Below are positions 415 to 23,081 of a stretch of DNA of 64,000 nt, one piece after another. The first letter of the stretch is position 1; every line of letters begins with the position of its first letter. The stretch lies in the NCBI GenBank assembly GCA_963769935.1, contig CAVYNY010000038.1, forward strand, positions 1-64,000, given 5' to 3'. Below the pieces are notes generated by a model, which saw only the letters and a program-made list of their open reading frames with translations, did not search any database and was not told the DNA's origin. This DNA is from an uncultured delta proteobacterium (GTDB taxonomy: Bacteria; Desulfobacterota; Desulfobacteria; Desulfobacterales; JAFDCJ01). The translations under genes and the position numbers were made by a program.

Positions 415-563
415 TGGCCATATATGACCATTGGTGATATGTAACCATAATATTTCGTTCAGTCCTCTCCTTAGGGCAGTCGTTCCCATATAAATTTTAG
501 GTGATAAATCAATACGTTGAGTTCATTATAGTTTAATTTTTTTAATCTGGCATGGAGTTTGAT
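415..563 (+). promoter_or_regulatory. Sigma54-type promoter module 1 (tandem enhancer, IHF site, -24/-12)
   Basis: TGGCCATATATGACCA-T-TGGTGATATGTAACCA 415-447; AATCAATACGTTG 507-519; TGGCATGGAGTTTGAT 548-563. Confidence 0.8.
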
Positions 564-608
564 CATACAATTTTGGACAGTTTAAATTTGACAGTTTAAA
601 TTTGTTTG

Positions 609-757
609 GATATGCACGAAGCGATCCAAGATATTGTGAAGGCCATGCGGGACTTGACAAAATATTTTTCCTGATTTCCATCCAGCGCCTTTGAATAACA
701 GTCGGCCTCTCAATCGAAATTCAAAAATAAGTTGTTTTTACCTGCAGGGGGTCACCC
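609..757 (+). pseudogene. 3' remnant plus downstream DNA of a paralogue of the 92-aa gene at 11426..11704
   Basis: MHEAIQDIVKAMRDLTKYFS* versus MHEAILDILKAMQDLKNKLF*; nucleotide similarity continues ~85 bp past the stop (cf. 11639-11787). Confidence 0.7.
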
Positions 758-760
758 GAA

Positions 761-2392
761 ATGGAAACGGAAACCATTTTGATCTTGCTGTTCGTTGTGG
801 CCACGGCCGTGGCGATCGCGGTGCAGCGTCTGGCCGTTCCCTACACAGTGGCCTTGGTCTTCACCGGCCTCGTGTTGGGGCTGCTGCATGCCTTCGAAGC
901 ACCCCACCTGACCAAGGCGCTGCTGTTCAACGTCTTCCTGCCGGGGCTGCTCTTCGAGGCCGCATTCCACATCGAGTTCAAGCAATTCTGGCGGAATCGC
1001 CTCACAATTAATTCTCTGGCCCTGCCCGGCGTGGTGGCGGCGATCGCGCTGACGGCCACGATTTTGACACCGGTCGCCAACGGTCTGCATTTCGTGCAGG
1101 ATTTCACCTGGAAACACGCGCTGGTGTTCGGCGCGATAATCTCCGCCACCGACCCCATCGCCGTCGTCGCGATCTTCAAGAGCCTGGGTGTCCCGAAACG
1201 TCTATCTGTGTTGCTCGATGGCGAGAGCCTCTTAAACGATGGCGTCGCCATCGTATTCTTTACGCTCAGTCTTGCGCTCGTGACGGGAACGGTCGTGACG
1301 GCCGGTGGATTGGCGCTCGATTTCATCAAGATTGTCGGAATCGGTGCACTCATTGGGGCGGGAGTCGGTCTGGCTGTTTCGCAAGTCATCAAGCAGGTGG
1401 ATGATCCGATGATCGAGATCACACTGACGACGATTGCGGCTTACGGTTCGTTCCTGGCCGCCGAGCACTTTCATTACTCCGGAGTGATTGCCACGGTATC
1501 GGCGGGTATGCTTTGCGGAAACTATGGTGCCCGTGTCGGTATGTCGCCATCGACCCGGATCGCCGTGGAGACTTTTTGGGAATACGTCGCTTTCGCTCTC
1601 AACTCCATCGTGTTCCTTCTGATTGGCCTCGAAGTGCACTTCCAGGCATTGCTGGCCTCCTGGCAGGCGATCCTGGTCGCCTACCTCGTGGTCACAGGAG
1701 GCAGGGCGCTGATCATCTTCGGCGCATCTTCGCTGCTGCGCAGGACGCGGGAACGAATTCCCTGGGCGTGGAGCGTGATTCTGACCTGGGGCGGGTTACG
1801 CGGCGGGTTGCCCATGGTGTTGGTACTCAGTCTTTCCATGGATTTTCCGCATAGGGGATTGCTGGTCTCGATGACCTTCGGGGTCGTCATTCTTTCGATC
1901 CTTGTCCACGGGTTGACAATGTCGCCTCTGCTGCGGTGGCTGGGGATTGTGCGCGGGCACCAGGAACGCGGCGTGTACGAGTTGACGCGCGGCAAGTTGC
2001 AGGCCGCCCATGCCGTCCTGGAGGAGCTCGACCGAATGTCGCACGTGCATTTCACCAATCCGGAGGTGCTCGCCGGTCTGCGCCGCGAATATGAACAAAA
2101 AGTTGAGCGCGATAGTGCGGCGCTGGATGAGCTGCATCTCGAGAGACAGCAACTTCACGCAGAGGAATTACAATGGGCTCGGCGGCATTTGCTGCTGGTG
2201 GAAAAAGGTGTGGTGATCGATGCCTTTCACCGTGGACACCTCAGTCAGACTGTCCAGGAGAAGTTGCTTGCGGATATCGATGCGCAGTTACTGCGTCTCG
2301 AATCGGGAGAAACGGACGAGCCTGACGAACAAGAACCGTCCCCAGACCGTACCGATGCAAATCACCCAACGGAATCGTTGGGGGCAAAATAA
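761..2392 (+). CDS. CPA1-family Na+/H+ antiporter (NhaP/NhaG-like)
   Basis: Multi-TM; SATDPIAV, GESLLNDG and WGGLRG motifs. Confidence 0.92.
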   Translation: METETILILLFVVATAVAIAVQRLAVPYTVALVFTGLVLGLLHAFEAPHLTKALLFNVFLPGLLFEAAFHIEFKQFWRNRLTINSLALPGVVAAIALTATILTPVANGLHFVQDFTWKHALVFGAIISATDPIAVVAIFKSLGVPKRLSVLLDGESLLNDGVAIVFFTLSLALVTGTVVTAGGLALDFIKIVGIGALIGAGVGLAVSQVIKQVDDPMIEITLTTIAAYGSFLAAEHFHYSGVIATVSAGMLCGNYGARVGMSPSTRIAVETFWEYVAFALNSIVFLLIGLEVHFQALLASWQAILVAYLVVTGGRALIIFGASSLLRRTRERIPWAWSVILTWGGLRGGLPMVLVLSLSMDFPHRGLLVSMTFGVVILSILVHGLTMSPLLRWLGIVRGHQERGVYELTRGKLQAAHAVLEELDRMSHVHFTNPEVLAGLRREYEQKVERDSAALDELHLERQQLHAEELQWARRHLLLVEKGVVIDAFHRGHLSQTVQEKLLADIDAQLLRLESGETDEPDEQEPSPDRTDANHPTESLGAK

Positions 2393-2440
2393 AACTACTG
2401 ACCCCGATAACATCGGCACGACATTTGAGGAGAGAAGGTC

Positions 2441-2571: not shown

Positions 2572-2720
2572 TGGTTATATATGACCAGTGGTTAAATACG
2601 ACCTTTTTTATGTGCCTATCAATGACCGCCCTGTAAATTCTATTTTAACTAATTATTCATATAAATCAGAGTGATGGGTGACGCGACGCCGAGTGGTAGA
2701 AGCCTGGCATAAAAATTGAA
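2572..2720 (+). promoter_or_regulatory. Sigma54-type promoter module 2
   Basis: TGGTTATATATGACCA-G-TGGTTAAATACGACCT 2572-2604; AATCAGAGTGATG at 2664; TGGCATAAAAATTGAA 2705-2720. Confidence 0.75.
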
Positions 2721-3034: not shown

Positions 3035-3325
3035 ATGAATGACAAAAGAAAAGCGTACGAAGAAAAGCTCGATGCACAGTTAAAGGAATGGAACGCGCAG
3101 ATCACTCTGCTCAGAGCCAAGGCGAAAAATGCCAAGGCCGGCGCGAAGGTCGATTACTATAAAACCATCGAGGCCTTGGAGCAGAAACAGGATAAGGCCA
3201 AGACCAAGCTGCAAGAGTTGAAGACCGCCGGCGATGAGGCATGGGAAGCCGTTAAAACAGGCGCGGAAAAAGCTTGGGCTGAAGTCAAGACCGCCTATCA
3301 TGATGCGGCCTCAAGGTTCAAATAA
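3035..3325 (+). CDS. Small coiled-coil stress-type protein
   Basis: Helical Lys/Ala/Glu-rich; LKTAGDEAWEAVKTGAEKAW motif; GGAGG RBS. Confidence 0.8.
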   Translation: MNDKRKAYEEKLDAQLKEWNAQITLLRAKAKNAKAGAKVDYYKTIEALEQKQDKAKTKLQELKTAGDEAWEAVKTGAEKAWAEVKTAYHDAASRFK

Positions 3326-3358: not shown

Positions 3359-3508
3359 ATGCTTTGGACCATATTTGTGATTCTCTTAGTTCTGTGGGGG
3401 CTGGGATTGATGACCGGCTACACGCTGGGCGGCGTCATTCATGTTTTGCTGGTCATCGCCATCATTGTGGTGCTGATCCAATTTATTCAAGGCCGAAGAC
3501 GAGTGTAA
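3359..3508 (+). CDS. lmo0937-family small membrane protein, 49 aa (not in ORF track)
   Basis: MLWTIFVILLVLWGLGLMTGYTLGGVIHVLLVIAIIVVLIQFIQGRRRV; AAGGAGG RBS. Confidence 0.88.
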   Translation: MLWTIFVILLVLWGLGLMTGYTLGGVIHVLLVIAIIVVLIQFIQGRRRV

Positions 3509-3704
3509 CCATTTGGACCTCCGCCGGGACAGGCGGAGGTGTTTACAGAAAGAAGTACCTGCTAAGAGCCCGAGGAGCTGAAACATGATTCTCCATAAAA
3601 AAAAGGTTTTGTTCATAACAACGGGCGTCATCACGCTGGTTATCTTGGCAGGCAGGGTGAAGAGTGCACGGCATTTTACTCAGGTTCAGGAGAAGGGCGT
3701 CCTC

Positions 3705-4154
3705 ATGAGAGTTCGGTGCGTTGCATTGTTTGCAGGGCTGGTGTTGGCGGGTCTTCCTGCCGCCGCCTTGGCCCAATCATCATGCACTGGAATTCACATA
3801 AAGATTCTGAATATCAGAAACAGCACTGGAACCGCAGCTTGTGCGCTTTTCGAATCGCCGGAGGGTTTCCCCATTGAGTTTCTGCACTATGCAACCAATA
3901 TCATGGCAATAAAAATTCGGGATACACAGGCACGTTGCGACTTTCTATACATCCCGCCGGGAACGTATGCCCTTGCCGTTATTCATGATGAAAATATGAA
4001 CGGCAAGCTTGACACCAAATGGTTGGGGATACCAACGGAAGGCTATGGCTTTTCAAACGACGCAAAGGCCTTTCTCAGCGCGCCTTCGTTTTCCGCAGCC
4101 AGCTTCGGCTACGACGGGCAAGACATGGAGCTGACAATCAGATTACATTATTAG
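3705..4154 (+). CDS. DUF2141-family secreted protein
   Basis: Signal peptide; PGTYALAVIHDENMNGKLD...GIPTEGYGFSND motif; start placed at ATG 3705 by RBS. Confidence 0.85.
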   Translation: MRVRCVALFAGLVLAGLPAAALAQSSCTGIHIKILNIRNSTGTAACALFESPEGFPIEFLHYATNIMAIKIRDTQARCDFLYIPPGTYALAVIHDENMNGKLDTKWLGIPTEGYGFSNDAKAFLSAPSFSAASFGYDGQDMELTIRLHY

Positions 4155-4226
4155 GCGTTTTTATGCAGTATCGTAAGACACTATTCGAAGCCTGTGTAGA
4201 AGTTTATGGCTTGTAAAGGGAGGCCC

Positions 4227-5489
4227 ATGGATGTCCCGCTGATCGAATTCAAGGACGTGACCAAGCGGTTCGGACGCCGAACAATCCTCGAGCGCGTCAA
4301 CCTGAAGATCTATGAGGAGCAGGTCACGACCATTATAGGCCTAAGCGGTTCAGGCAAGAGCGTTCTGCTCAAACACATCATCGGGTTGCTCAAGCCGGAC
4401 GAGGGTACCATTCTTTTCCGGGGTAAACCCTTCCACCAGATGGGAAAGAAGGGCATAGCCGCTTGTTTAGGCCAGATGAGTTACATGTTTCAAGGCGACG
4501 CTCTCTTCGACTCGATGACGGTCTATGAGAATGTGGCCATCCCCATTCGGGAAACGATGAACTTGAGCAAGGCGGAAATCGATCGCAGGGTCATGGCCAG
4601 AATCGAACAGGCAGAGCTCGGCGAAGCCGCGCTGAAATTTCCCTCGCAGATTTCAGGGGGTATGCGAAAGAGAGTCGCACTGGCGCGGGCCCTGATCACC
4701 GATCCCCACATTGTCCTTTTTGACGAACCCACCACAGGGTTGGATCCTGTTCGCAAAAATGCGATCCTGAGCATGATTGCCCAATATCACAAAAAATTCG
4801 GTCTTACTGCGATTCTGGTCAGCCATGAGATTCCGGATATTTTTTTCATCTCGAACCGGATTCTCGCCCTCTACGATCAAACGATCGTTTTTCAGGGCAC
4901 ACCGGAGGAACTCGAGGCCTTTGAGCATCCTTTCAAGGATGAAGTTCTCAAGAGCATCGAAGGCTTGCAGGAAGAATTAACCGGCCTCTATTCCAGACGA
5001 TATTTTAAGGTGCGGTATCAAACCGAGCTGAAGCGTGCAGCATTTCGTGAGACTTATGCGATTGTGGTTTTTACGATGGAGAACCTGGACACCATCAGCG
5101 CCGGCTTGGGTCATAAAGCGGCGCCGGAGGCTATCCGATGCATAGGCGTGTATATCGATAAACACTTTGGCGCTGTGGGCGGGTTCTCCACCCGTCAAAA
5201 GATCAATGAATTTGTGACGGTGCTCCCCAATTCGGATAGGGTTGAAGCTGAAGGTATTCTCAAAAATTTTACCACGGATATTCAAGAGCAGGGAATCCGT
5301 CAGATTCATACCGGAGCCAACAAGAGGGCCGCTTCTATGGTAAACCTTGAATTCGCGATCCGTGCCGGAATTGCCCAGGGCCCTCAAGGCCAAACCACTG
5401 TCGAATTGGAATCCATCATAGCGCTTGCGAAAGATGACCAGAAGGAGATCGCCCGACTCCGCTGCGGCGCGTGGGGTTGTGCGAATTGA
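4227..5489 (+). CDS. MlaF/Ttg2A-like ABC ATPase fused to a degenerate GGDEF-like domain
   Basis: GLSGSGKS, ISGGMRKR, LFDEPTTGLD; C-terminal ELTGLYSRRYF...KINEFVTVLP. Confidence 0.8.
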   Translation: MDVPLIEFKDVTKRFGRRTILERVNLKIYEEQVTTIIGLSGSGKSVLLKHIIGLLKPDEGTILFRGKPFHQMGKKGIAACLGQMSYMFQGDALFDSMTVYENVAIPIRETMNLSKAEIDRRVMARIEQAELGEAALKFPSQISGGMRKRVALARALITDPHIVLFDEPTTGLDPVRKNAILSMIAQYHKKFGLTAILVSHEIPDIFFISNRILALYDQTIVFQGTPEELEAFEHPFKDEVLKSIEGLQEELTGLYSRRYFKVRYQTELKRAAFRETYAIVVFTMENLDTISAGLGHKAAPEAIRCIGVYIDKHFGAVGGFSTRQKINEFVTVLPNSDRVEAEGILKNFTTDIQEQGIRQIHTGANKRAASMVNLEFAIRAGIAQGPQGQTTVELESIIALAKDDQKEIARLRCGAWGCAN

Positions 5490-5538: not shown

Positions 5539-7014
5539 ATGGTAGCTCATCCGGATGCAAAACGAAAAGATGTCCTGGAACAGATCGCCCGCCGGGCCAT
5601 GCAAAAATATGGCTTTCTGCCCGATTTCTCAGCGGACGCCCTTAGAGAACTGGAGAAGGTGCAGCAAGTAGATCGTGAGGCAGAATTTCCCGGAATAGAC
5701 CTGCGCCACCTGCTCTGGGTATCCATTGACAATGATGATTCCCTGGACCTGGACCAACTGACGGTGGCGGAGGAGCTGACGGATTCACAGGTGAAAGTTT
5801 TGGTGGCCGTCGCCGACGTGGCGGCCCTCGTCAAGAAGAACTCGGCCATCGATGCACACGCCCGCCACAACACGACTTCGGTCTACACCGCCGGCAGGAT
5901 TTTTCCCATGCTGCCGGAGAAACTCTCCACGGATCTCACCTCACTCAACTATCATGAAGACCGCCCGGCCATAGTCATCGAAATACTGATCGGCGACGGA
6001 GGTGCGATGCAAGGCTCGGATATCTATCGTGCCCGGGTGCACAACCAGGCCAAGCTTGCCTACAACAGCGTAGCGGCCTGGCTGGAAGGCAAGGGGCCCA
6101 TGCCGGAGGCCGTGGCGGTGGTCCCGGGGCTGGCCGAGAATCTCCGGCTCCAGGACCGGGTGGCGCAGCAATTGAAAGCCCTGCGGCATGTGCACGGTGC
6201 CCTGGATCTCCAGACGCTGGAAGCCCGCCCCGTCTTTGCCGGAGACGAGATCCAGGATCTGCAGGCGGATGAGCGCAACCGCGCCAAGGAGATCATCGAG
6301 GACTTCATGATTGCGGCCAACGGCGTGACCGCGCGTTTTCTGCACGGGAAGAAAATCGCCTCCTTGAGGCGCATGGTCCGCTCCCCCAAGCGCTGGAAGC
6401 GGATCGTCGAGATCGCGTCCCAGCACAATTTCAAGCTTCCGGAGCAGCCGGATTCGAAGTCGCTCGAAGGATTCCTGGCCGCGCAGAAATCCGCCGACCC
6501 ACTCCGCTTTCCCGATCTGTCGCTTGCCGTCATCAAACTGCTAGGGCCGGGTGAATATGTCGTCGAAACGCCGGACGAGGCGACCCCCGGCCACTTCGGT
6601 TTGGCCGTCAAGGATTACACGCACTCAACGGCTCCCAACCGGCGGTTTCCGGACCTGATCACCCAGCGCATCCTGAAGGCCGCTTTAGAGGGGTCGCCCC
6701 TGTCCTACAGCCGGGACGAATTGACGGAACTGGCCCGCCACTGCACGGAGAAGGAAAATGATGCCAACAAGGTGGAGCGACTGGTTACCAAATCAGCCGC
6801 GGCCATGCTGCTCTCCTCAAGGATCGGAGACCGGTTTGACGCCATCTGCACGGGCGCGGCCGACAAAGGGACATGGGTCCGCATCTTTAAGCCCCCGATC
6901 GAAGGCCGGCTGCTTTATGGGGTGGAAGGCGTCGATGTGGGCCTCCGGCTCAAGGTGCAACTTATCCGCACGGATGTGGAGAAGGGGTATATCGATTTCA
7001 AGAAGGTTCAATAA
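5539..7014 (+). CDS. RNB-domain exoribonuclease (RNase II/R family)
   Basis: SIDNDDSLDLDQ acidic motif; YTHSTAPNRRFPDL. Confidence 0.92.
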   Translation: MVAHPDAKRKDVLEQIARRAMQKYGFLPDFSADALRELEKVQQVDREAEFPGIDLRHLLWVSIDNDDSLDLDQLTVAEELTDSQVKVLVAVADVAALVKKNSAIDAHARHNTTSVYTAGRIFPMLPEKLSTDLTSLNYHEDRPAIVIEILIGDGGAMQGSDIYRARVHNQAKLAYNSVAAWLEGKGPMPEAVAVVPGLAENLRLQDRVAQQLKALRHVHGALDLQTLEARPVFAGDEIQDLQADERNRAKEIIEDFMIAANGVTARFLHGKKIASLRRMVRSPKRWKRIVEIASQHNFKLPEQPDSKSLEGFLAAQKSADPLRFPDLSLAVIKLLGPGEYVVETPDEATPGHFGLAVKDYTHSTAPNRRFPDLITQRILKAALEGSPLSYSRDELTELARHCTEKENDANKVERLVTKSAAAMLLSSRIGDRFDAICTGAADKGTWVRIFKPPIEGRLLYGVEGVDVGLRLKVQLIRTDVEKGYIDFKKVQ

Positions 7015-7099
7015 CAGGTCTTGCCTCACATAATAACACCGTCAGCTCGTATTCCTTCACGCAGAATACTCCACACCCCGTCAAGGATCCAAAAGGCGA

Positions 7100-7249
7100 T
7101 GGTTATATATGACCATTGGTCATATGCAACCATGATATTGCGTTCAGTCCTCTCTCTATTGGCAGTCGCTTTTATAAAAGTATTAATAGATAAATCAATA
7201 TGTTGAAATCAATATAGTTATACTTTTCCAATCTGGCACGAAGTTTGAT
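7100..7249 (+). promoter_or_regulatory. Sigma54-type promoter module 3
   Basis: TGGTTATATATGACCA-T-TGGTCATATGCAACCA 7100-7132; AATCAATATGTTG 7193-7205; TGGCACGAAGTTTGAT 7234-7249. Confidence 0.85.
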
Positions 7250-7413
7250 TATATGATCAGGGAAAGTTTAAATTCTTGGCAAACGCGCTGATGGAAACAG
7301 TTCCAATTTTAGTTACGGCTATCAATAATTTCGGATCCATGGAAAGCATAAAAAAATGAAATTGATATAAATTCGCTTTGCTAGGACCTAAATTAATTCC
7401 AAAGGAGGGAAAA

Positions 7414-7587
7414 ATGACAAATATCTTGACCAAGGATGTCCAAACCTATGTCAGGGAACTGATTTCAAAGGAGTTCGGATCCGTCCACAGGGAAAATACT
7501 CATTCGGAGAACCGAATATCAATCAACCGTGAACCTCAGACACAGCCACAACAATCAGCCGTGTTGGGCCAAAAGGTAGAAGGATAA
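7414..7587 (+). CDS. Small hypothetical protein, 57 aa
   Basis: AAGGAGG RBS; first ORF with an RBS after promoter module 3. Confidence 0.55.
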   Translation: MTNILTKDVQTYVRELISKEFGSVHRENTHSENRISINREPQTQPQQSAVLGQKVEG

Positions 7588-7725
7588 ACAAACTGAATTT
7601 GTTGGAATACGATTCCGGGCAAAAAAACCACCGAATTTATATCAATTCAGGGGCTTCGCTGCGATTGAAATGAAGGTAAGGAGGGCTTCCGTGATCATTA
7701 TAAGAGCAGAAAGGAGTCTCAAGAC

Positions 7726-9204
7726 ATGAACGTTCTCCTGATTTACCCCAAATTTCCGGATACGTTTTGGTCTTTCAAATACGCTTTAACTTTCATTCGC
7801 AAGAAAGCCGCCAACCCGCCGCTCGGCCTGCTCACTGTCGCGGCCATGCTGCCTGATGAATTTCAAAAGCGCCTGATGGATATGAACGTGGATTGCCTTA
7901 CCGATGACGACCTCTCATGGGCGGATATGGCCTTTATCGGGGGCATGACGGTTCAACGGGACGCGGCCAAACAAATCATCGCCCATTGCAAGCGGAGTGG
8001 GTTGAAGGTCGTCGCGGGCGGACCGCTTTTCACTGCGGAACCGGATGCATTCGGGGAGGTGGACCATCTTGTCCTCGACGAGGCCGAACTAACATTGCCG
8101 TCTTTTCTTGAGGACTTGAAAAACGGGCGTCCGAAAAAAATTTACAGGGCATCCGGTTTCTGCGACCTTCGCCACACCCCCATCCCGGCATGGCATTTGA
8201 TACGCATGAAAAAATATGCGTCAATGAGCCTTCAGTTTTCCAGAGGATGCCCGTTCAACTGTGAGTTTTGTAACGTGACGACTCTTTTCGGTCATCGGCC
8301 CCGCATGAAAACACCTCAACAGGTCATTGCAGAACTGGACTATTTTTATGATGCCGGTTGGCGCGGCAATATTTTTTTTGTTGACGACAATTTTATCGGC
8401 AACAAACAATATCTGAAGACAAGTCTGTTGCCGGCGCTGATCGAATGGCGCAAGAATAAAAAGGGATGTGTCTTTTATACGGAAGCCTCGATAAACTTGG
8501 CCGACGACCCTGAACTGCTGAACCTTATGGTCAGAGCGGGATTTGATTCGGTGTTTATCGGAATCGAATCACCCGATGAGGAAAGCCTCACGGAATGCCG
8601 CAAAAATCAAAACAAAAACCGGGATCTCCTTCAAAATGTCAAAATTATCCAACATTCCGGATTACAGGTTACGGCCGGGTTTATTATCGGCTTCGACAGC
8701 GACACCCCGTCCACCTTTCAGCGGCAGATCGATTTCATTCAGAAAAGCGGTATCGTAACCGCCATGGTCGGAATACTGAATGCCCCGCCGGGGACCAAGC
8801 TTTTTGAGCGGCTTCAGAGGGAAGACCGCGTGATCGGTAAGGTCTCCGGCGACAATGTGGATGGAACTACCAATATTATTCCGAAAATGGGTTTGCCCGG
8901 GCTTTTGGAAGGCTACCGGTCGATTATGGGGCATATTTATTCTCCCAGGCACTACTACCGGCGTGTGAGGACATTTCTTGCCGAATTCGGAACTCCTCGG
9001 GCCCGAACGCCCATGGATTTCCGGCGCGTCCTCGCATTCTTTCAGTCCAGCTTGCGGCTCGGCATTTTGGGGAAGGAACGGTTCCAGTACTGGTATCTGC
9101 TGCTCTGGACCATGATCCGCAGACCCAGGCTATTACCATTGGCCGTCACTCTTGCAATATACGGCCATCACTTCCGGAAGATATGCGACTTGTATATTCT
9201 GTGA
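7726..9204 (+). CDS. B12-binding radical SAM protein (DUF4070, HpnP-like)
   Basis: YPKFPDTFWSF, PPLGLLTVAA; RGCPFNCEFC CxxxCxxC. Confidence 0.9.
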   Translation: MNVLLIYPKFPDTFWSFKYALTFIRKKAANPPLGLLTVAAMLPDEFQKRLMDMNVDCLTDDDLSWADMAFIGGMTVQRDAAKQIIAHCKRSGLKVVAGGPLFTAEPDAFGEVDHLVLDEAELTLPSFLEDLKNGRPKKIYRASGFCDLRHTPIPAWHLIRMKKYASMSLQFSRGCPFNCEFCNVTTLFGHRPRMKTPQQVIAELDYFYDAGWRGNIFFVDDNFIGNKQYLKTSLLPALIEWRKNKKGCVFYTEASINLADDPELLNLMVRAGFDSVFIGIESPDEESLTECRKNQNKNRDLLQNVKIIQHSGLQVTAGFIIGFDSDTPSTFQRQIDFIQKSGIVTAMVGILNAPPGTKLFERLQREDRVIGKVSGDNVDGTTNIIPKMGLPGLLEGYRSIMGHIYSPRHYYRRVRTFLAEFGTPRARTPMDFRRVLAFFQSSLRLGILGKERFQYWYLLLWTMIRRPRLLPLAVTLAIYGHHFRKICDLYIL

Positions 9205-9256
9205 ATGGAATATTTACCATGCCGATGGTGACACGTTTTGAAAGGAGAATGCGACC

Positions 9257-10357
9257 ATGGATAATGACCCGATAGATAAGATTTCGTCGTTTATAGATGA
9301 ATTGACAGCGCGATTCAAAATTCCCAAGCTGAATCTCAGGCGGTCGGGCGGGTTGAAGATTCTGGCCTTCGCGGTGGTGCTGGTGATTATTGGCTATAAC
9401 CTCTTCTTTGTTTACGTGCGGCCGGATGAGTACGGGATCAAGGTAGTTCGGGTCGGCTTAAACCGCGGCGTTCAAAATAAGATTTATCATGCGGGCCTGA
9501 GTTTTGTGCTGCCCTTCGGGTTGCAGCAGATGTACCGGCTTCCCAAGGGCATCCAGGTGCTGGAGCTGACCAACTTTCCCCAAACCGCCGCCGAGGCCGC
9601 CAGGAAAGACCGGGCCGCCCATATTCAGACCTCGGACGGATTTTTCGTGGATGTGGACGTTTCCATGCTTTACCATATCAAGGATCCCTACCTGGTTTTT
9701 ACCACCATCGGTCCCGGAACCCTCTATGAGGATAACGGCATCATTCCCAAGGCCGAACCGGCCTTGAAAGAGACCCTGGGCAAGCTTACGACCGAAGAAT
9801 TTTACAACAGCCCCCTGCGGGTCAAAAAAGCGGAAGAGGCCAAGCAACAGCTAAACAGCGAGTTAAATCTGAAAGGCATCGAAGTGGACCAGGTGCTGGT
9901 GCGATATTTTAAATACAGTCCGGAAATCCAGAAAAACATCGAGGAAAAGAAGCTGCAGGACCAGATGGTATTTACCAACCAGGCGGCCGCCCGGGCGGCC
10001 AGGGAAGAGGCCGAATTGAAGAAAATCGTGCAGGAGGGAATGGTCACGGCTGCCGTTGAAATGGAAACGGGCAAAGCCTATGTCACCCGCAAGATCGCCG
10101 AAAAAGATCTTTATGTTCGCAAGATCAAAGCCGAAGCCGACCTGCTGGTGCAGCTGGCCGAGGCGGAACGGGTGCGTCTGAAAAATGAAGCCCTGAAGGG
10201 GGTCGGCTCCGAACGCATGGTGGGACTGAAAATGGCTGATGCCTACAAGGGGTTGGATATCATCATTCTGCCCAGCGACGGTCCGCATGGGGTCAACCCC
10301 CTGGACCTGAACAACGCCTTGCAATTATTCGATGTTCGCAAAGGAGGTGGCCAATGA
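9257..10357 (+). CDS. SPFH/band-7 membrane protein
   Basis: N-terminal TM, SPFH core (IQTSDGFFVDVDVSMLY), coiled-coil tail. Confidence 0.85.
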   Translation: MDNDPIDKISSFIDELTARFKIPKLNLRRSGGLKILAFAVVLVIIGYNLFFVYVRPDEYGIKVVRVGLNRGVQNKIYHAGLSFVLPFGLQQMYRLPKGIQVLELTNFPQTAAEAARKDRAAHIQTSDGFFVDVDVSMLYHIKDPYLVFTTIGPGTLYEDNGIIPKAEPALKETLGKLTTEEFYNSPLRVKKAEEAKQQLNSELNLKGIEVDQVLVRYFKYSPEIQKNIEEKKLQDQMVFTNQAAARAAREEAELKKIVQEGMVTAAVEMETGKAYVTRKIAEKDLYVRKIKAEADLLVQLAEAERVRLKNEALKGVGSERMVGLKMADAYKGLDIIILPSDGPHGVNPLDLNNALQLFDVRKGGGQ

Positions 10358-11397
10358 AGCGCATTTTTGCTGTAGTCGTGTTATTGACAACCCTGCTGGC
10401 TGCGGCCGGCTGCATGCCCCATACCACGGGAGAGACGGAAGTGGGCGTCAGAACCCGCAAACTGGCCATTTTCCATCCAAAGGGCGTTGAGGACCAGGTG
10501 TACGCTCCGGGGGCCACCTACTTTTTTCTGCCATTTATCAACGACTGGAATGTTTTCGACACCAAACTGCAGAACCTGGAGATGACGTATACGCAATTAA
10601 GGGGCGACCGCCGAACCCAGGATGATCTGGTGTTTAAAACCATCGACGGCAACGACATCAGCCTGGATGTCATTATCGCCTATCGCATCGATCCGAACAT
10701 GGCGCCGCATATTCTTCAGTATGTGGCCCGCGACGACAAGGCGTTGCGGGATACCGTCGTACGGACCGTCGCCCGCAGCAAACCGCGCGACATTTTCGGT
10801 GAACTCAAGACCGAGGCCTTCTATGTGGCCGAGGCCCGCGAAAGCCAGGCCAACAAAGCCAAAGAAGCCCTTCAAAGCATTCTGGGCCCCATGGGCGTGG
10901 TCGTCGAAAAAGTGCTGACCAACGACTATCGCTTCAACGCTGAATATACCAAGGCCATCGAAGACAAAAAAGTGGCCGACCAGCAGGTGGAGAAAAACAA
11001 GTCCGCCCAGCACGCCGCCCTGGAAGAATACAAGCGTAAACTGGAAGAAGCCAAAGGCGAGGTCAACAAGATGGTGGCCGACGCCGACGGCCAATACCGC
11101 AAAGCCAAAATCGAAGCCGATGTTTACCAGGAACAGCAGCAACTCCTGGCCAAAGCCATCCAGGCCGAAGGCAGCGCCCAAGCCAAAGGCATTCTGGAAA
11201 TGAACAACGCCCTGGCCGGCTCGGGCGGCGAGGCGATCGTCAAATTGAGAATCGCCGAAGCACTGCAGGGCAAGCATATCATACTGCTGCCGGTTTCAGA
11301 GGGTGGGATGAATCTAAAAACCACCGACATCAACCGGCTGATCGAAACATTAGGCGTTAAGTCGCTTTCCGGCGGGCAAACGGCGGTAGTGAAGTGA
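10354..11397 (+). CDS. SPFH/prohibitin-like protein (possible lipoprotein)
   Basis: LAAAGC lipobox-like; FKTIDGNDISLDVIIAYRID; ATGA overlap with the previous gene. Confidence 0.85.
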   Translation: MKRIFAVVVLLTTLLAAAGCMPHTTGETEVGVRTRKLAIFHPKGVEDQVYAPGATYFFLPFINDWNVFDTKLQNLEMTYTQLRGDRRTQDDLVFKTIDGNDISLDVIIAYRIDPNMAPHILQYVARDDKALRDTVVRTVARSKPRDIFGELKTEAFYVAEARESQANKAKEALQSILGPMGVVVEKVLTNDYRFNAEYTKAIEDKKVADQQVEKNKSAQHAALEEYKRKLEEAKGEVNKMVADADGQYRKAKIEADVYQEQQQLLAKAIQAEGSAQAKGILEMNNALAGSGGEAIVKLRIAEALQGKHIILLPVSEGGMNLKTTDINRLIETLGVKSLSGGQTAVVK

Positions 11398-11425: not shown

Positions 11426-11704
11426 ATGCCAAAGAACTTAGAATCCAAGAATATCGCGCAATTACTGGCTGAGGCCGAGGAACTCATCCAACAATTTGAT
11501 TCCGAAGCCATAAAAGACATGCAAGAAGAGCATCGCCAGCAGTTTGAAAAACACGCTCAAACCTTGAAAAAAATTAAATCCGAGGTTCAGGGCAAGATCG
11601 AGAATAAGGGAACATCGGAAATAGGCTCCAGCGCTGAGGGTATGCACGAAGCGATCCTGGATATTCTGAAGGCCATGCAGGACTTGAAAAACAAGCTTTT
11701 CTGA
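11426..11704 (+). CDS. Hypothetical helical protein, 92 aa
   Basis: Co-oriented ORF in the operon; its 3' end is duplicated at 609-673. Confidence 0.7.
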   Translation: MPKNLESKNIAQLLAEAEELIQQFDSEAIKDMQEEHRQQFEKHAQTLKKIKSEVQGKIENKGTSEIGSSAEGMHEAILDILKAMQDLKNKLF

Positions 11705-11855: not shown

Positions 11856-13772
11856 ATGAAAATGCCATCCGATGGAAAAAAAGAACCACTGGAAGATTTA
11901 AAAGATAAGCTGCGTTCCATTCTCGGTTTCCGGGAACGCCAGAAAAATTCCTTGCCTCCTAAGGCTCATTTCAGCATCTGGTATTTCCTGATCGCCTTCC
12001 TGTTATTTTCTTACCTGCAGCAATACTATTTTTCGCGAAAAGTGGAGACGATTCCCTACAGCCAATTCAAACAATACATCGCCAAAAACAACATCAGCAA
12101 ATTGACCATCAGCCCTGAAAATATCAACGGAACGCTAAAGGGAGAGCCGGTCCAGAATTTCACCACCATTCGGGTGAATGATCCCGACCTGGTGCAGGAT
12201 CTGGATGAACACAAAGTCAATTACTCCGGTCACTATGAGAGTCAATTTCTGAGTACCCTGCTCTCCTGGATCATCCCCATCGGCATTTTTTTCCTGATCT
12301 GGCGCTACGCCATGAAAAAGATGGGGCCGGGCATGGGGGTGATGTCCTTTAGCAAGAGCAAAGCCAAGATATTTGCCGAAAGTGAAACCAAGGTCACTTT
12401 CGCCGATGCCGCCGGCATCGATGAGGCCAAGGAAGAGCTCGAGGAAGTAGTGGAATTTCTGAGCAATCCGGGCAAATTCCAGAAACTGGGGGGCCGGATA
12501 CCCAAAGGGGTGCTTCTGGTCGGCCCGCCGGGGACCGGCAAAACCCTTCTGGCCCGGGCGGTGGCCGGAGAGGCCAAGGTGCCGTTTTTCAGCATCAGCG
12601 GGTCTGAGTTTGTGGAGATGTTTGTCGGCGTCGGCGCCGCCCGGGTTCGCGATCTTTTCGCCCAGGCCGCCGTCCAGGCCCCCTGCATCATCTTTATCGA
12701 CGAGCTGGACGCATTGGGAAAAGCCCGGGGAATGAATATTATGGGCGGTCATGACGAACGCGAGCAGACGCTCAACCAGCTCCTGGTGGAAATGGATGGG
12801 TTCGAGACGAATAAAGGGGTCATCATCATGGCCGCCACCAACCGGCCGGAAATCCTGGATCCAGCGTTGCTGCGGCCGGGTCGGTTTGATCGGCAGGTCC
12901 TGGTTGACCGCCCGGATATCAACGGACGCGAAGCCATCCTGAAAATTCATTCCAAAAATGTTATTTTAAGCCCCAAGGTTGATTTGCGTATGATTGCCGG
13001 CCGGACGCCAGGCTTTGTGGGAGCCGATCTGGCCAACCTCATCAATGAGGCCGCCCTTCTGGCGGCCCGTAAAGATAAAGAAGAGGTGGGACTGGAGGAG
13101 TTCGATGAGGCTATCGACCGGGTGGTCGCGGGCCTGCAGAAAAAAAACCGGGTGATGAATCCGCAGGAGAAAGAAATTGTGGCCTTTCATGAGTCCGGAC
13201 ATGCCATTGTGGCTGAGTCTGTCGAGCATGCCGACCCGGTGCACAAAATTTCCATTATCCCCCGGGGAATTGCAGCCCTCGGATACACCCAGCAGCAACC
13301 TACCGAGGACCGCTATCTAATGACCCGCTCCGAGCTGCTCGACCGGTTGGCCGTACTTTTGGGCGGCAGGGTAGCGGAGGAGCTGGTTTTCGAAGAAATC
13401 TCCACCGGGGCCCAAAACGACTTGCAGCGGGCAACCGACATTGCCCGGTCCATGGTCACGGAATACGGCATGAGCGATCGGCTGGGACTGGTGAGCTATG
13501 AGCGCGCTCGTCAGCCGATGTTCCTGCCGGATAGTTTTGCGCCCGGTAAAAATTACAGTGAAGCCAAAGCCGCCCAGATTGACGAAGAGGTCGCTCGGTT
13601 TGTCGAGGAAGCCCATCAAAGGGTATACAAAATCCTCTCTGAGCGGCGGAACGTGCTGGATGATTTGGCCCATCTCCTTTCGCAGAAGGAAAGTGTCCAG
13701 GGAGAAGAGCTCAGAAAAATGTTGTCCGAATCCACCCCTGAAGGGGCAGCTTCATCGCCTGGGGGAATATAA
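11856..13772 (+). CDS. ftsH: ATP-dependent zinc metalloprotease FtsH
   Basis: Two TMs, [20 protein letters not shown] zinc motif. Confidence 0.97.
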
Positions 13773-15383: not shown

Positions 15384-15564
15384 GACGTAAAAATGGCTGA
15401 TATTATAAAAGATGATGTTCGGACATACCGATACACATCGTAAGTTGGTATACTCGTCAATTCGATATGATGATGCAAGTATTTTTAACTTGAGACGCTG
15501 CAAGTAATAGTGATGTTATTTGTTGTTATCGCAACATGCAGTGAGGGTAGTATATGGTTACTAA

Positions 15565-15720
15565 GGGCTCGCTCAAAAATAACTTCACATTTTATACGCC
15601 GATGCATCTCTTGCGGCTGCGTTGCGAAAGCTCGGAATATCCAGATATTCCTGCGTTTTCGCGCCTTGCCGCAAGAGCGCCTCAGCGCCTAAAACTGTGA
15701 ATTAACTTTTTCGTGAACCC
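15565..15720. mobile_element. 156-bp MITE-like element, copy 1
   Basis: Imperfect terminal inverted repeats (GGGCTCGCTCAAAAATAA...TTTTTCGTGAACCC), TAA on both flanks, homologous copy at 21117. Confidence 0.8.
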
Positions 15721-15840
15721 TAAAGGGTAAAATCAAACTTGACAAACTTGAGCAAAAGCTCGTTAATACAATTAGAGAGCCCCCCGTACAGCGGCGGTTA
15801 AACAAAACACTTATAATTAATTTGGAAAGGTGATATTGGC

Positions 15841-16558: not shown

Positions 16559-16586
16559 CCAATGAACGCCGGGGAATGACTGAGGT

Positions 16587-18227
<1,641 letters not shown>

Positions 18228-18253
18228 TTAACCTCCATCCATTTTATTTTTTG

Positions 18254-18541
18254 TTATTCGACAACACCAAGCACGTCATCCTCGCGCATGATAAGGTATT
18301 CTTCACCCTCTATTTTTACCTCGGTACCCGAATATTTGCCAAATAGAATCCGATCGCCTTTCTTGACTTCAAGCGCTATGCGCTTTCCCTCTTCGCTGAG
18401 TTTTCCATTGCCGGCAGCAATCACTTTGCCTTCAATTGGTTTTTCTTTGGCTGTATCCGGGATGATGATCCCGCCTTTTGTTTTTCCCTCTTCTTCAACC
18501 CGTTGAACTAAAATTCGATCCTGTAATGGTCTGAGTTTCAT
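18254..18541 (-). CDS. groES: Co-chaperonin GroES
   Basis: [25 protein letters not shown]. Confidence 0.98.
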
Positions 18542-19062
18542 GGTTCAGATTCTCCTTTTTGAAGCAACTGTTTCATCCATTTATTTCTCCATCGCAACCG
18601 TGACGTTTCCCATTGCATTTATCCAACAAATTAGCCCGGTGTTTCCTCCTTCATCAGAATAATTATCCTGCTCGGATCGAGCTTCCAAAGCGATCGCAAT
18701 TGCGAATGACGGTAATAAGCCCTACCTGAAAAGTGATGATAGACCATTTAGTCTTCTGAAGTCTTCTGATATAAACATACAAAAGGAGGGCGCAATGTGG
18801 TTGGCTGTTGCGAGGTCAGCTCCGGCTAAATTGAAACCGATGTTTGTTGAAAAGTAGAAAAGGGAAATATCGTTAAAAAGATTTACTCCTAAAATTATGC
18901 ATGTAAATCCATTTTGTCAAGCACATGCAGCATAAAAAGCTGCCGAACAAATCCGGCGATCCAGTTTCGGAGATTAGATGATCCGCTGCGCTCAATCGGC
19001 ACCTCGCCAACCGATTTATTTCTTCACGGGGAGCTATAACACCACTCTTATGATACCAAACA

Positions 19063-19211
19063 TGGTCATATTTGGCCATTGGTTAGATATGACCACACAA
19101 TTGCACGAATTCATTCCGCCTCGATCAGCTTATTTTTGGAAAAATAATACAAGATATCTTTAGGTTAGGAAAATTCGAGCATGATTCGACCTGTCTGGCA
19201 CGAAGTTTGAA
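19063..19211 (+). promoter_or_regulatory. Sigma54-type promoter module 4
   Basis: TGGTCATATTTGGCCA-T-TGGTTAGATATGACCA 19063-19095; TATCTTTAGGTTA at 19155; TGGCACGAAGTTTGAA 19196-19211. Confidence 0.82.
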
Positions 19212-19282
19212 TAATGATAACGAACATTTTGGGACTTTTTGATGGTTTTTAAAATTTATTAGACAGTGAGGAAATCAGCGAT

Positions 19283-20974
19283 ATGAAATTACTGCTCAGT
19301 TCTGTATTTGGGCCATATGGGGTAGACGATGAATATGGGGAAAAAGAAAATAAGATGGAGCTCTTTCACAATCAGGTTACCAGAGAGCAGGGCATATTTT
19401 CTTATCGATTCAATCATGCGAGCCAGGGGCTATATTTTTTAGCTGAAAATATCGACATGCCCACCACGGTGCTTGATTTCCCAACCTTTAAACGGTTTAA
19501 AAAGGAATTAAAAAAAGGCTACGATTACATTGGAATCAGTTTTATTATACCCAATTTTAAAAAAGCAAGGGCCATGGCACGCGCTGTTCGCAAATTGTCA
19601 CCGCAATCCAAGATTATTTTGGGAGGTCACGGCGTCAATATACCAAATATAGAATCCATGATCGACCAGGATTTTATCTGCAAAGGGGAAGGCGTATATT
19701 TTTTAAGAAAACTTTTTCGGGAAAGCGTGAATAAGCCTATCAAGCATCCTCTTGAATACAGCTCTTTCAACCGGCAAGTCATGGGGGCCCCCTGGGCATC
19801 CGATTCCGGCATTCTGATACCGGGTGTGGGCTGTGCCAACAAATGCCGTTTTTGTGCCACATCGCATTTCTTCGGCAGTTATATACCCTACTTAAAGACC
19901 GGCCGGGATATATTTGATGTCTGCTGCCGATACGAGGATGAGAAAAATATAAATGATTTCGGTGTCTTGGATGAAAATTTTTTGAAAATGAAAGATCGTG
20001 CCCTGGAATTATTGGAGCTCATGGAAAAGAACCATCGCCGCTTTTCGTTTGCAATTTTCAGTTCCGCCGAGACATTGAAGGAAATAGGTGACCTGGATAT
20101 TCTGGTTCGCCTGGGGGTTACGTTTATTTGGATCGGCGTGGAATCGAAAAAGGAAATCTATGCAAAAAATAAAAATACCGATTTTTATACGCTCATTGCC
20201 GAATTAAAGAAAAGAGGGATCAGCGTTTTGGCATCATCGATCTTATTTCTCGAACAACACGATAAAGATACGATCTGGCAGGATGTCGACTTTGTGACCT
20301 CGTTGCAGCCTGATTATCTGCAATTCTCGGAGCTGGGACCTATTCCCGGAACAAAATTATATGCTGACTATGAAAAACAGGGTAAATTAATCAGAAACAT
20401 TCCTTATGAATTTCAACACGGTCAGGGTAAAATATGGTTTCGGCATGAATATTTTACAAGAGACGAATCAAAGGATCTTTTACGTCAGGCTTTTGAACTG
20501 GATTATATCAGAAACGGCGCTTCCTTGCTGCGTAATATAAAAACCACTTTTGAGGGCTATTTATATTGCAGCCGCCATCCGAACGACCTCATTCGAGAGC
20601 GTTCAAAAACCTACCGCAAACGTCTTACCTTAATGCGAAATTTTCTCACGGCCTCCACAATTTTTGTGCAAAACCGGCAAAGTAAAATCCTGCTAAAAGA
20701 AATCAAGAAATTATTTCATTTACATTTCGGCCGGATGAACCTTGCGACTTTTGCAACATCGATGGTTGTCGTTTTTTTTAGCGTCAAAGAATATCTGCGT
20801 TCTCGAATTATTGGAGATGTCAGAGTGCCGAAAACAGCCTGTCGAAGTTATAGAAATAGCGGGTTTCATGAACGCACGGAAAAGGCGTTTAGTGAGGCGC
20901 GCAATTTACTTGAAAACAGCCATAGAGGGCTTAAAACATCGCCCAAATTGTCGAGCGTGATCGGACGCAAATAG
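19283..20974 (+). CDS. B12-binding radical SAM protein
   Basis: GCANKCRFC; N-terminal cobalamin-binding-like region (YDYIGISF...IILGGHG). Confidence 0.85.
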   Translation: MKLLLSSVFGPYGVDDEYGEKENKMELFHNQVTREQGIFSYRFNHASQGLYFLAENIDMPTTVLDFPTFKRFKKELKKGYDYIGISFIIPNFKKARAMARAVRKLSPQSKIILGGHGVNIPNIESMIDQDFICKGEGVYFLRKLFRESVNKPIKHPLEYSSFNRQVMGAPWASDSGILIPGVGCANKCRFCATSHFFGSYIPYLKTGRDIFDVCCRYEDEKNINDFGVLDENFLKMKDRALELLELMEKNHRRFSFAIFSSAETLKEIGDLDILVRLGVTFIWIGVESKKEIYAKNKNTDFYTLIAELKKRGISVLASSILFLEQHDKDTIWQDVDFVTSLQPDYLQFSELGPIPGTKLYADYEKQGKLIRNIPYEFQHGQGKIWFRHEYFTRDESKDLLRQAFELDYIRNGASLLRNIKTTFEGYLYCSRHPNDLIRERSKTYRKRLTLMRNFLTASTIFVQNRQSKILLKEIKKLFHLHFGRMNLATFATSMVVVFFSVKEYLRSRIIGDVRVPKTACRSYRNSGFHERTEKAFSEARNLLENSHRGLKTSPKLSSVIGRK

Positions 20975-21116
20975 AGGTTGGGAAGCAGCGAAACCATATC
21001 GAAACGCTTAAAAAAACAGCAGCCGAAATTTTATAAAAATTAGCATCGGCGATTGAAAACATTACCTTAAATCTGCTATAAAGTTCAGAGCGCTTCGGCC
21101 AGCCGCCCTGAACTAA

Positions 21117-21272
21117 GGGCTCACTCAAAAATAACTTCACATTTTATATGCCGCTGCATCCCGCCTGGCTGCGTTGCGAAAGCTCGGAATATCCAGATAT
21201 TCCTGCGTTTTCGCGCCTTGCCAGCCGGGCGCCGCACCGCCTAAAATTGTGAACTTATTTTTTCGTGAACCC
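21117..21272. mobile_element. 156-bp MITE-like element, copy 2
   Basis: Same length, termini and TAA flanks as 15565..15720. Confidence 0.8.
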
Positions 21273-21410
21273 TAACGTCAGGTTCAAGCAGTCACACCCT
21301 CCTGGGCCCGGCATGAAAAGCCGAAGAGTGATATTTGGGGTCACCAATCTTCAGTTACTTGCTGAATTAAGAAAGATTGGAAAATAGCTGCAAGCTATAG
21401 AGGATTTGAT

Positions 21411-22928
21411 TTGGGCTCCATACAAACGGCAATCATCGTGCTGGCTTCTTTTAGCGCCATCGCAGCCCTGCTCATTGTCGGACTGCTAATACAGCGGTCG
21501 CGACACGGCCGGGCAAAAGCGGCGTTGCGCGCCAGTGAAGAGCGGTATCTTTTGGCCCTCGCAGGCTCCACCGACGGCCTCTGGGACTGGAATCTGCTGT
21601 CCGGCACCGTCTTTTACTCCGATCGTTTCAGGGAAATCCTGGGGTATTCGTCCGAGGAGTTTCCCGGCCGGATAGATTCCTTCCGCAGCCGCCTGCACCC
21701 TGAAGACGCCGAGACCATCTGGACCGCGATCGAACGCCATCTTCAAGAGCACATCCCCTACAAGGTCGAATACCGCCTGCAGAAAAAATCCGGCGAGTAC
21801 CTGTGGTTTCTCGCGCGCGGCCAGGCCATCTGGAACAGCGAGGGCAAAGCGATCCGGATGTCCGGTTCTATTCAGGACATTACCGAGCGCAAGCAGGCCG
21901 AGCTTGATCTTAGGGCCGCCCTGTCCGAAATAAAAGAGCTAAAAGAAAAACTGGAGGTCGAGAGAGCCTATCTGCAGGAAGAAATCAAATTGGAATACAA
22001 CTATGAGAACATTATCGGTCAAAGCGACGGGCTCAAATATGTTCTCTATAAGGTGGAGCAAATTGCCCCCGGCGATACGACCGTTCTCGTTCTGGGGGAG
22101 ACCGGAACCGGCAAAGAGCTGGTGGCTCGGGCCATTCATGGCTTGAGCCCGCGCAAAAATAGGGCCTTAGTCAAAGTGAATTGCGCCACTCTACCTGCCA
22201 ATCTCGTCGAAAGCGAGCTATTCGGCCACGAGAAAGGTGCTTTCACGGGAGCCCATGCCAGACAACTGGGGCGCTTTGAAGTGGCCGACGGCGCCACCCT
22301 TTTTCTGGATGAGATCGGGGAACTGCCGCTGGAACTGCAGCCCAAACTGCTCAGGGTGATCCAGGATGGCGAGTTTGAACGGTTGGGCAGCTCCGGGACG
22401 ATCAAAGTCGATGCGCGGGTGATTGCCGCCACCAATCGCAACCTGGAAGAGGAAGTCCGCCGGGGCCGGTTTCGGGAAGACCTTTGGTACCGGCTCAACA
22501 TTTTTCCGATTACGGTGCCCCCGCTGCGGGAACGGATGGAGGACATCGCCCTGCTGGTGGATTTTTTCGTCGGTAAAATTTCCAAAAGACTGGGGAAGTC
22601 TATTGAAAGCATCCCGACGAGCGTTATGAATGCCCTGCAGGAGTATCAATGGCCCGGCAATGTCAGGGAATTGGAAAACGTCCTCGAACGGGCGGTAATC
22701 AATTCCTCGGGACCCAAACTACGCCTGGTGGATGAACTGAAAAAGCCTACTAAGGATTTAGCGGCCACCCAAAAAACACTGGAAGAGGTTGAGCGCGACC
22801 ATATTATCCGAATACTCGAACAAACCAATTGGAAAGTGAGCGGCAAAGACGGGGCCGCAGAAATCCTGGGGCTTAACCGCAGCACACTACGCGCCCGCAT
22901 CCGAAAATTGGGTATCCGCCAGCTATGA
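21411..22928 (+). CDS. Sigma54-dependent activator (TM-PAS-AAA+-Fis HTH); start uncertain
   Basis: [41 protein letters not shown]-terminal HTH; PAS (DGLWDW). Confidence 0.93.
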
Positions 22929-23081
22929 ACATGGTTAAATATGGCCATTGGCCATATTTAACCATGTCATCCCACCGATTCATCCCTTTCGACATAGCCT
23001 CTTTTTTAAAATTATTATTATAAATATCAATCTGTTAAGTTTATTTTGATTTGACCTAGTCCGTCTGGCACGAAGTTTGAA
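22929..23081 (+). promoter_or_regulatory. Sigma54-type promoter module 5 (perfect palindromic enhancer)
   Basis: ACATGGTTAAATATGGCCA-T-TGGCCATATTTAACCATGT 22929-22967; TATCAATCTGTTA 23025-23037; TGGCACGAAGTTTGAA 23066-23081. Confidence 0.88.

Follow-up and report, generated by a model that had tools for sequence, protein, structure and literature searches.

A probable sigma54-dependent regulon with a tandem operator, a candidate activator and a predicted ABM-fold partner in an uncultured delta proteobacterium

General stress regulons such as those of SigB, EcfG and RpoS are run by an alternative factor of the sigma70 family acting on dispersed genes, and both RpoS and the lmo0937 protein have links to responses of this kind. 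The SigB core set of Bacillus subtilis includes csbD, ytxG and ytxH (PMC7824861), csbD is EcfG-dependent in Sphingopyxis (PMC7083833), and EcfG is reported from alphaproteobacteria only (PMC3892343). In the sulfate reducer Desulfovibrio vulgaris Hildenborough, the OrpR regulon is controlled by a PAS-AAA-helix-turn-helix (HTH) sigma54 activator, which is assisted by IHF and acts from a palindromic operator adjoining its own gene (PMC8359166). Sigma54 activators can also be controlled by anti-activators, among them PspA, FleN and NifL. PspF is controlled by PspA, and FleQ by FleN, an anti-activator on its AAA domain (PMC8528422). Here we describe a set of five sigma54-type promoter modules in a 64-kb stretch of DNA (the window; positions 1 to 64,000 of contig CAVYNY010000038.1, or C38, assembly GCA_963769935.1) from an uncultured delta proteobacterium of the Desulfobacterales. 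Our preferred reading, to which we assign a probability of roughly 0.68, is that the modules serve a clustered gene set of general-stress type, switched on by the activator encoded at 21411–22928 and held in check by an ABM-fold protein.

Each module consists of a tandem operator of two 16-bp palindromes at a 17-bp period, an IHF-like site starting 41 bp 5′ of the core (three exact matches to WATCAA-N4-TTR, two with two mismatches) and a TGGCA core, whose distance from the operator start is 133, 133, 134, 133 and 134 bp in modules 1 to 5 (Table 1). A sequence-only reading of this stretch had proposed these five promoters of identical geometry, and all of its positions, offsets and IHF-like matches were reproduced; its palindrome consensus fitted the ten window half-operators exactly in six cases, with one mismatch in three and with two in one. 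A matrix scan of the 7.99-Mb home assembly found exactly eight tandem operators, five of them in the window and the other three on the minus strand of contig C32 (3311, 12922 and 24087, within its first 25 kb), which have offsets of 133, 132 and 134 bp and IHF-like sites at −41. The tandem pattern cannot be ascribed to chance, because at up to three mismatches on the forward strand it occurred eight times in the home genome and in none of ten block-shuffled genomes. The −24 element and the spacing were found in 8/8 home promoters, with the −12 element in the variant form TTGA, and as far as architecture can tell the modules are textbook sigma54-type promoters. The home genome has rpoN and 12 IHF/HU-family matches (IHF and HU taken together). 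Since the module groups of C38 and C32 both sit at contig starts and are co-oriented if a reversed C32 precedes C38, they may form one cluster of about 50 kb. The start of C32 carries a transposase gene (DDE_5, 90–1393), and an open reading frame (ORF) for a coiled-coil protein like that of 3035–3325 is cut by the start of the window (1–117, minus strand).

A reading of the operator as an RNA hairpin or terminator was rejected, as paired changes were not in excess within half-sites or across the 33-mer (98 distinct sites, with variation restricted by the search pattern). Scans of window positions 18500–24600 for sigma70 promoters and terminators gave hits at shuffle level only. Thirteen metatranscriptome runs contain 5–20% of the sequence words, and five were examined at contig level for start sites. 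In the contigs, which stem from relatives, ORFs were covered far more than promoter 2 and some operators were covered; divergence explains the gap equally well.

A scan of one genome per species returned at least 120 stretches with at least 121 distinct operator sites; counts over these sites given below refer to the matches listed. Judged by record title, most carriers belong to the Desulfobacterales, the Desulfobulbales or unclassified deltaproteobacteria. The core matrix for the test of geometry came from the eight home promoters only; with it, a search of both strands at offsets of 40–260 bp placed the best core 128–135 bp from the operator in 105 of the 121 operators of other genomes, while 4.4 were expected. 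The operator consensus from these 105 independent sites is TGGTCATATATGACCA, and the Escherichia coli IHF consensus (at most two mismatches) lies 40 bp before the core in 33/105 and 41 bp before it in 53/105. The geometry also recurred in metagenomic loci fetched by the ABM protein rather than by the motif: 62 of the 80 loci had at least 450 bp of upstream sequence, and 56 of these 62 contained the operator, always at 132–135 bp from the core. The module is present in 27/100 order-level genomes at two mismatches (27–29 overall), in one of two same-genus genomes and, at one mismatch, in 3/300 phylum-level genomes. D. variabilis Montpellier carries 11 operator sites within 81 kb plus one isolated three-mismatch hit, and three genomes with long contigs have five (G198), five (G253) and four (G356) clustered modules.

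A second feature of these promoters is their −12 element. All eight home cores end in TTGA rather than the canonical TTGC, that is, in GA and not GC, while the 45 other strict cores upstream of genes in the home genome have C at the same position in 35 cases and A in three. Among the cores of relatives (n = 114) the base is A in 75, C in 28, T in eight and G in three; A occurs in 51/56 loci of the ABM-seeded set and forms the majority in 44 of 78 clusters defined by spacer identity. The C at −12 is 96% conserved and restrains basal transcription (PMC4551910), and the A may allow a leakier basal output. The module promoters are natural −12 A cases for probing the role of the conserved C.

The likely cognate activator is encoded immediately upstream of module 5 (Table 1). 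The sequence-only reading had assigned all five promoters to one activator and left the protein unnamed, though its gene lies in the window; the comparative tests back the pairing of one operator with one activator clade. The gene has a TTG start and a GAGGA ribosome site that are conserved in relatives, and the protein has one N-terminal membrane helix and intact Walker A/B, GAFTGA and Fis-type HTH motifs; a paralog on C32 is 88% identical. The home genome holds dozens of other sigma54 activators. Of the 80 flanked loci, 28 gave a long activator match, in every case 73–93% identical to the window protein in AAA-HTH, the other hits being short C-terminal fragments, and an activator gene ends at most 400 bp upstream of the operator in 30/116 modules. 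Among 100 order-level genomes, 23 have both the operator and a clade activator, four the operator only, two the activator only and 71 neither (activators at ≥67% identity; two at 57–58% were left out). Three of the six exceptions were resolved: both activator-only genomes carry variant operators with a core at 133–134 bp, and in the operator-only genome G319 the activator is cut by a contig end. In two more (G360 and G385) the site lies less than 150 bp from a contig start. Operator-linked activators share the HTH signature [N/D/E/G]RS[T/V]LR and, in a quick tree plus 35-row trees, occupy one side of a branch with support of 91/90, or 91/86 on AAA alone, without the HTH columns. Sixteen of them had TM-PAS (transmembrane-PAS), PAS, PAS-PAS, REC or no detected input domain, and by this domain survey the input is interchangeable. 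In both of its home copies the activator gene is preceded by regulon operons of the same orientation, which makes read-through autoregulation possible. From all these comparisons we consider it very likely that the modules and the activator constitute one regulon.

Several further loci concern activators of this type. On C32, inside the cluster, 6312–11846 contains kaiC-kaiB-kaiB, followed by genes for a PAS sigma54 activator, whose HTH is frameshifted, for an ABM paralog and for a receiver protein. This Kai-linked activator (C32:7550) and one on C36 were rejected as main cognates, since in both the recognition-helix arginine is replaced by proline, both are frameshifted and no operator follows them. 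The C36 locus (L123:12192–15309) is a frameshifted sensor-activator fusion whose membrane helix resembles the N-terminus of the window activator, which suggests that the latter arose by truncation of such a fusion. A CheB-CheR-PAS fusion followed by a PAS protein lies at C32 24247–30147, and the next gene in the relatives L139, L155 and L156 is a full clade activator. A 164-bp repeat occurs twice in the window (15560–15723 and 21112–21275) and matches about 79 other places in the genome; one of the window copies is situated upstream of the activator gene.

The first gene behind promoter 5 encodes an ABM-fold protein, which is closely linked to the activator. It is among the first three ORFs in 22/25 activator-adjacent modules vs 8/49 other modules, strong matches (E below 1e-40) occur in 23/29 module genomes and in 0/71 others (weaker relatives in 11 genomes), and 34/44 ABM-seeded loci have an activator ending no more than 1.3 kb upstream. 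The predicted complex of activator residues 150–445 with two ABM copies reached a score of 0.81, the best of three controls 0.00; the mark for this score was reached by 116/157 solved and 2/215 mismatched pairs, the runs agreed in 94% of contacts and the predicted local distance difference test (pLDDT) value of the partner was at least 85. Memory of a similar complex is not evident, because the solved entries nearest to the two proteins do not overlap. The predicted interface joins activator residues 205–217 (first AAA helix) and 363–374 with ABM residues 13–24 and 69–80. Y210 is present in 27/27 aligned clade activators and 0/58 other home activators, position 213 is Y or F in 27/27, and the ABM interface residues are better conserved than the remainder (mean 0.84 vs 0.72). 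On this model ABM is reasonably likely to bind the AAA domain physically. Its being itself a target of the activator makes a brake the likeliest role, and inhibition is proposed tentatively. A further activator–ABM pair lies at C35 123251–124193, where an activator HTH fragment precedes a distant ABM gene.

The genes behind the promoters are listed in Table 1. Family scans agreed with the earlier labels antiporter, lmo0937, DUF2141, RNB, radical SAM, SPFH, FtsH and ABM; of the pair labelled DUF3185/coiled-coil, the coiled-coil protein belongs to the sll1863 family, and the DUF3185 match stays under the Pfam cut-off (19.7 vs 25.3 bits). Among 77 relative modules, the clusters found downstream are headed by ABM (32 loci), followed by the DUF4070 radical SAM, the 116-amino-acid (aa) membrane protein and the 92-aa coiled-coil protein with the counts of Table 1, a KH-domain protein and a large GT4 (7 each), FtsH and sll1863 (6 each), HflK and BON (5 each) and a desaturase, lmo0937 and CsbD (4 each). 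The C32 part adds CsbD, BON, YtxH, DUF948-like, LapA and GT4/GH130 genes, and of 138 called further island proteins 67 were scanned, with Hsp20, DnaJ-C, Usp, superoxide dismutase, GroEL and a K+ transporter among the hits and many proteins without a hit. One regulon had been claimed to include the antiporter and the RNB operon; their promoters are present, but because both genes are absent from the labelled recurrent clusters they may be local passengers. The likeness to RpoS, SigB or EcfG regulons that had been noted is one of gene content, in which hallmark targets do occur, and from this content a stress function of the module genes is rather likely. None of the eight proteins scanned out of ten with sigma70 region 2 in the home genome (RpoD, an RpoD-like second factor, FliA, an RpoH-like protein and four ECFs) exceeded the cut-offs for RpoS or SigB, and RpoS stayed under cut-off in 5/5 other module genomes examined. 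The second RpoD-like factor (532 aa, C13 431031–432629, L127) falls below both the RpoD and the RpoS cut-off.

Table 1. Features of the promoter modules and the genes around them (positions in the window)
Feature	Position	Strand	Basis	Remark
Tandem operator 1	415..447	.	pattern + matrix scan	two 16-bp palindromes, 17-bp period
IHF-like site 1	507..519	+	motif match	exact WATCAA-N4-TTR
Sigma54 core 1	548..562	+	motif match	TGGCA-N7-TGA; predicted +1 ~574
Remnant of 92-aa coiled-coil gene	608..754	+	sequence match	in leader; 82% to 11638–11784
CPA1 Na+/H+ antiporter	761..2392	+	family scan
Tandem operator 2	2572..2604	.	pattern scan
IHF-like site 2	2664..2676	+	motif match	two mismatches
Sigma54 core 2	2705..2719	+	motif match	predicted +1 ~2731
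73-aa protein with two membrane helices	2777..2998	+	family scan	weak DUF3185 likeness, below cut-off
sll1863-family stress response protein	3035..3325	+	family scan
lmo0937-family membrane protein	3359..3508	+	family scan
DUF2141 ORF	3585..4154	+	family scan, sequence match	5′ end matches start of AsmA-family gene on C32
ABC ATPase	4206..5489	+	family scan	GGDEF-like C-terminal domain
RNB-domain exoribonuclease	5539..7014	+	family scan
Tandem operator 3	7100..7132	.	pattern scan
IHF-like site 3	7193..7205	+	motif match	exact
Sigma54 core 3	7234..7248	+	motif match	predicted +1 ~7260
B12-binding radical SAM with DUF4070	7726..9204	+	family scan, clustering	recurrent target, 15/77
Two SPFH/Band 7 genes	9257..11397	+	family scan
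92-aa coiled-coil protein	11426..11704	+	clustering	recurrent target, 11/77
FtsH protease	11856..13772	+	family scan
Tandem operator 4	19063..19095	.	pattern scan
IHF-like site 4	19155..19167	+	motif match	two mismatches
Sigma54 core 4	19196..19210	+	motif match	predicted +1 ~19222
Second B12-binding radical SAM	19283..20974	+	family scan
Likely cognate activator	21411..22928	+	domain scan, adjacency, co-occurrence	TM-PAS_3-sigma54 AAA-HTH_8, FhlA-like
Tandem operator 5	22932..22964	.	pattern scan	three bases past activator stop codon
IHF-like site 5	23025..23037	+	motif match	exact
Sigma54 core 5	23066..23080	+	motif match	predicted +1 ~23092
ABM-fold protein	23184..23516	+	family scan, complex prediction	predicted partner of activator AAA domain
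116-aa membrane protein without family	23649..23999	+	clustering	recurrent target, 13/77
34-aa lysine-rich ORF	24224..24328	+	clustering	recurrent in relatives, 4/77

Other genes in and around the cluster were recorded as well. The groES/groEL pair at 16587–18541 (minus strand) lies between modules 3 and 4 and is divergent from operator 4, and GroEL is also encoded in the G356 island; no CIRCE element was found before the window groES. A DnaG-like zinc-finger/TOPRIM protein is encoded within the cluster at 14082–15383 and also by a 430-aa ORF after FtsH in G356. After the ABM operon there is a gene for a RelA/SpoT-domain protein (24547–25686), and such a gene is met again downstream of modules in L027 and L028. 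In two genomes (L013 and L049) the first ORF after the module is of the DsrD family, which would tie the control of sulfite reduction to the regulon. The DUF4070 radical SAM protein, which bears a likeness to the hopanoid methylase HpnP, was not given that role, as a squalene-hopene cyclase match is absent from the genome and the homology search gave generic names only.

The assignment of the modules to one regulon under the adjacent activator has to be weighed against two very improbable alternatives. If a different activator or a Crp/Fnr-type factor bound the operator and the adjacent activator were merely a neighbour, the five operators without a detected clade activator in G302 would be accounted for, and the home genome does hold two further related activators differing at one recognition-helix residue; the tight adjacency and the co-occurrence of the operator with one activator clade only argue against such a binder. 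The identical geometry could also have arisen because one promoter cassette was copied recently, with several of the copies driving passengers and no coherent regulon behind them. The home spacers do group as operators 1, 3, C32:12922 and C32:24087 (66–83% identical) and as operator 2 and C32:3311 (80%), and genes of the island are shuffled, truncated or chimeric. Because operators 1 and 3 and the two C32 copies are duplicates, the five window promoters are not independent, and promoter duplication, to judge from the spacers, accounts for part of the geometry that the sequence-only reading had rightly called identical. Copying leaves unexplained that the 128–135-bp spacing is kept in 70 of the 78 spacer-identity clusters of relatives despite a median spacer identity of 49%, and that the same target families recur across orders.

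The other two alternatives accept the regulon and concern what it does. The response may be a narrower programme, directed to the envelope and membranes or to oxygen exposure and not to general stress: FtsH, HflK/C, SPFH, cardiolipin synthase, desaturase, LapA and glycosyltransferases recur, the window activator has an N-terminal membrane helix and one island encodes superoxide dismutase. We regard this as unlikely, as CsbD, YtxH, lmo0937, sll1863, Usp, Hsp20 and K+ transport between them cover several kinds of stress, the input domains vary (PAS, PAS-PAS, REC or none) and the window PAS, unlike that of the redox sensor OrpR, has no cysteines. A more serious possibility, though one falling somewhat short of probable, is that ABM does not act as a brake and is either a co-activator or a normal enzyme of the YgiN type, since its Pfam family bears the name of an enzyme, the solved relatives are ABM proteins that stand alone, the linkage could reflect a conserved first target and the complex prediction carries no information on sign. 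Against this stand the conserved residues at the predicted interface, opposite exposed aromatics peculiar to the activator clade, and the ABM paralog on C32, which likewise comes after an activator, the Kai-linked one, without an intervening operator.

Some observations count against the preferred reading of an ABM-restrained general-stress regulon. The patchy distribution of the module is not that of a universal RpoS replacement, and the RpoD-like second sigma factor and several unclassified ECF sigmas could run the stress response instead. The eight home promoters derive, by their sequences, from about four lineages, the counts over kin genomes are non-independent, and the search pattern had a fixed 17-bp period, although one 18-bp case exists. 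G302 has its five operators and no clade activator was found there, 5/26 activator genomes are without a strong ABM match, and the complex prediction departed from its calibration in using custom alignments and two copies of the partner.

Under the preferred reading, the tandem operator, the IHF-like site and the −24/−12 core at fixed spacing, all visible in the sequence, would be the starting point. Co-occurrence and adjacency suggest that two activator dimers bind the two palindromes. By established sigma54 biology, IHF would bend the DNA, and the AAA ring would contact sigma54 and open the promoter about 26 bases after the first T of the core, possibly above a basal output raised by the −12 A. 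As the gene content suggests, the products would shield proteins and membranes when the cell meets starvation, osmotic stress or oxidative stress. ABM is predicted to dock on AAA helix 1, with negative feedback, like that of PspA on PspF, as the likeliest sign. A wider statement, according to which many Desulfobacterota possess a self-contained, sigma54-run general stress response on a shuffling island, with a plug-in-sensor activator clade, −12 A promoters and ABM as an enzyme fold turned anti-activator and thereby a new class of sigma54 feedback regulator, seems to us doubtful as a whole.

The system offers a way into the question of how general stress responses are organised in sediment sulfate reducers that lack RpoS, SigB and EcfG, and it provides a named activator, an exact operator and predicted start sites. 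Cultured carriers are Desulfosarcina alkanivorans PL12, D. variabilis Montpellier, Desulfoprunum benzoelyticum DSM 28570 and Desulfopila IMCC35006/35008. The regulon would bring several unannotated small proteins under one function; if ABM does bind the AAA domain, the small group of known sigma54 anti-activators would gain a new fold, and the family that now goes by the name 'antibiotic biosynthesis monooxygenase' would gain a function.

No description of this system was found in literature searches that excluded subscription papers and RegPrecise. The operator is absent from the main text and five supplementary files of the D. vulgaris regulome (Kazakov 2015, PMC4641369), which gave two unrelated TGACCA hits only, and from the main text of PMC3333781 (Rajeev 2011). 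The operator, which the sequence-only reading did not recognise from described regulons, and the activator clade are undescribed as far as these searches reach, and the partner is predicted to be of a new kind.

Compared with known systems, the locus shares with OrpR the activator type, the help of IHF and the palindromic operator next to the activator gene. OrpR differs in its operator GGGCGYRTTTTGCGCCC, in controlling two operons only and in an Fe-S cluster on three PAS cysteines, which are absent from the window PAS, and the available part of its description mentions no partner protein (PMC8359166). The best NCBIfam match of the window activator is the FhlA/HyfR clade (NF011958, 420 bits vs a cut-off of 830); the HTH type is similar, but the protein has PAS instead of GAF domains, stays below the equivalog cut-off and does not target formate hydrogenlyase genes. 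PspF-PspA is likewise a sigma54 activator of stress genes controlled via a protein on its AAA domain, which for ABM is only predicted. PspA is a coiled-coil protein and PspF has no input domain, while the modules combine an ABM-fold partner with swappable activator inputs and up to 11 clustered promoters. FleN, which binds the AAA domain of its activator as predicted for ABM, is a P-loop ATPase that touches alpha2, alpha3, beta2 and loop 1 (PMC8528422), whereas the site predicted for ABM consists of residues 205–217 and 363–374. With the SigB, EcfG and RpoS regulons the modules share the marker genes csbD, ytxG/ytxH-like, osmY-like, lmo0937 and clsB, but in place of a sigma70-family factor and dispersed genes they have sigma54 with an ATPase activator, a cluster of 10–80 kb and a patchy distribution.

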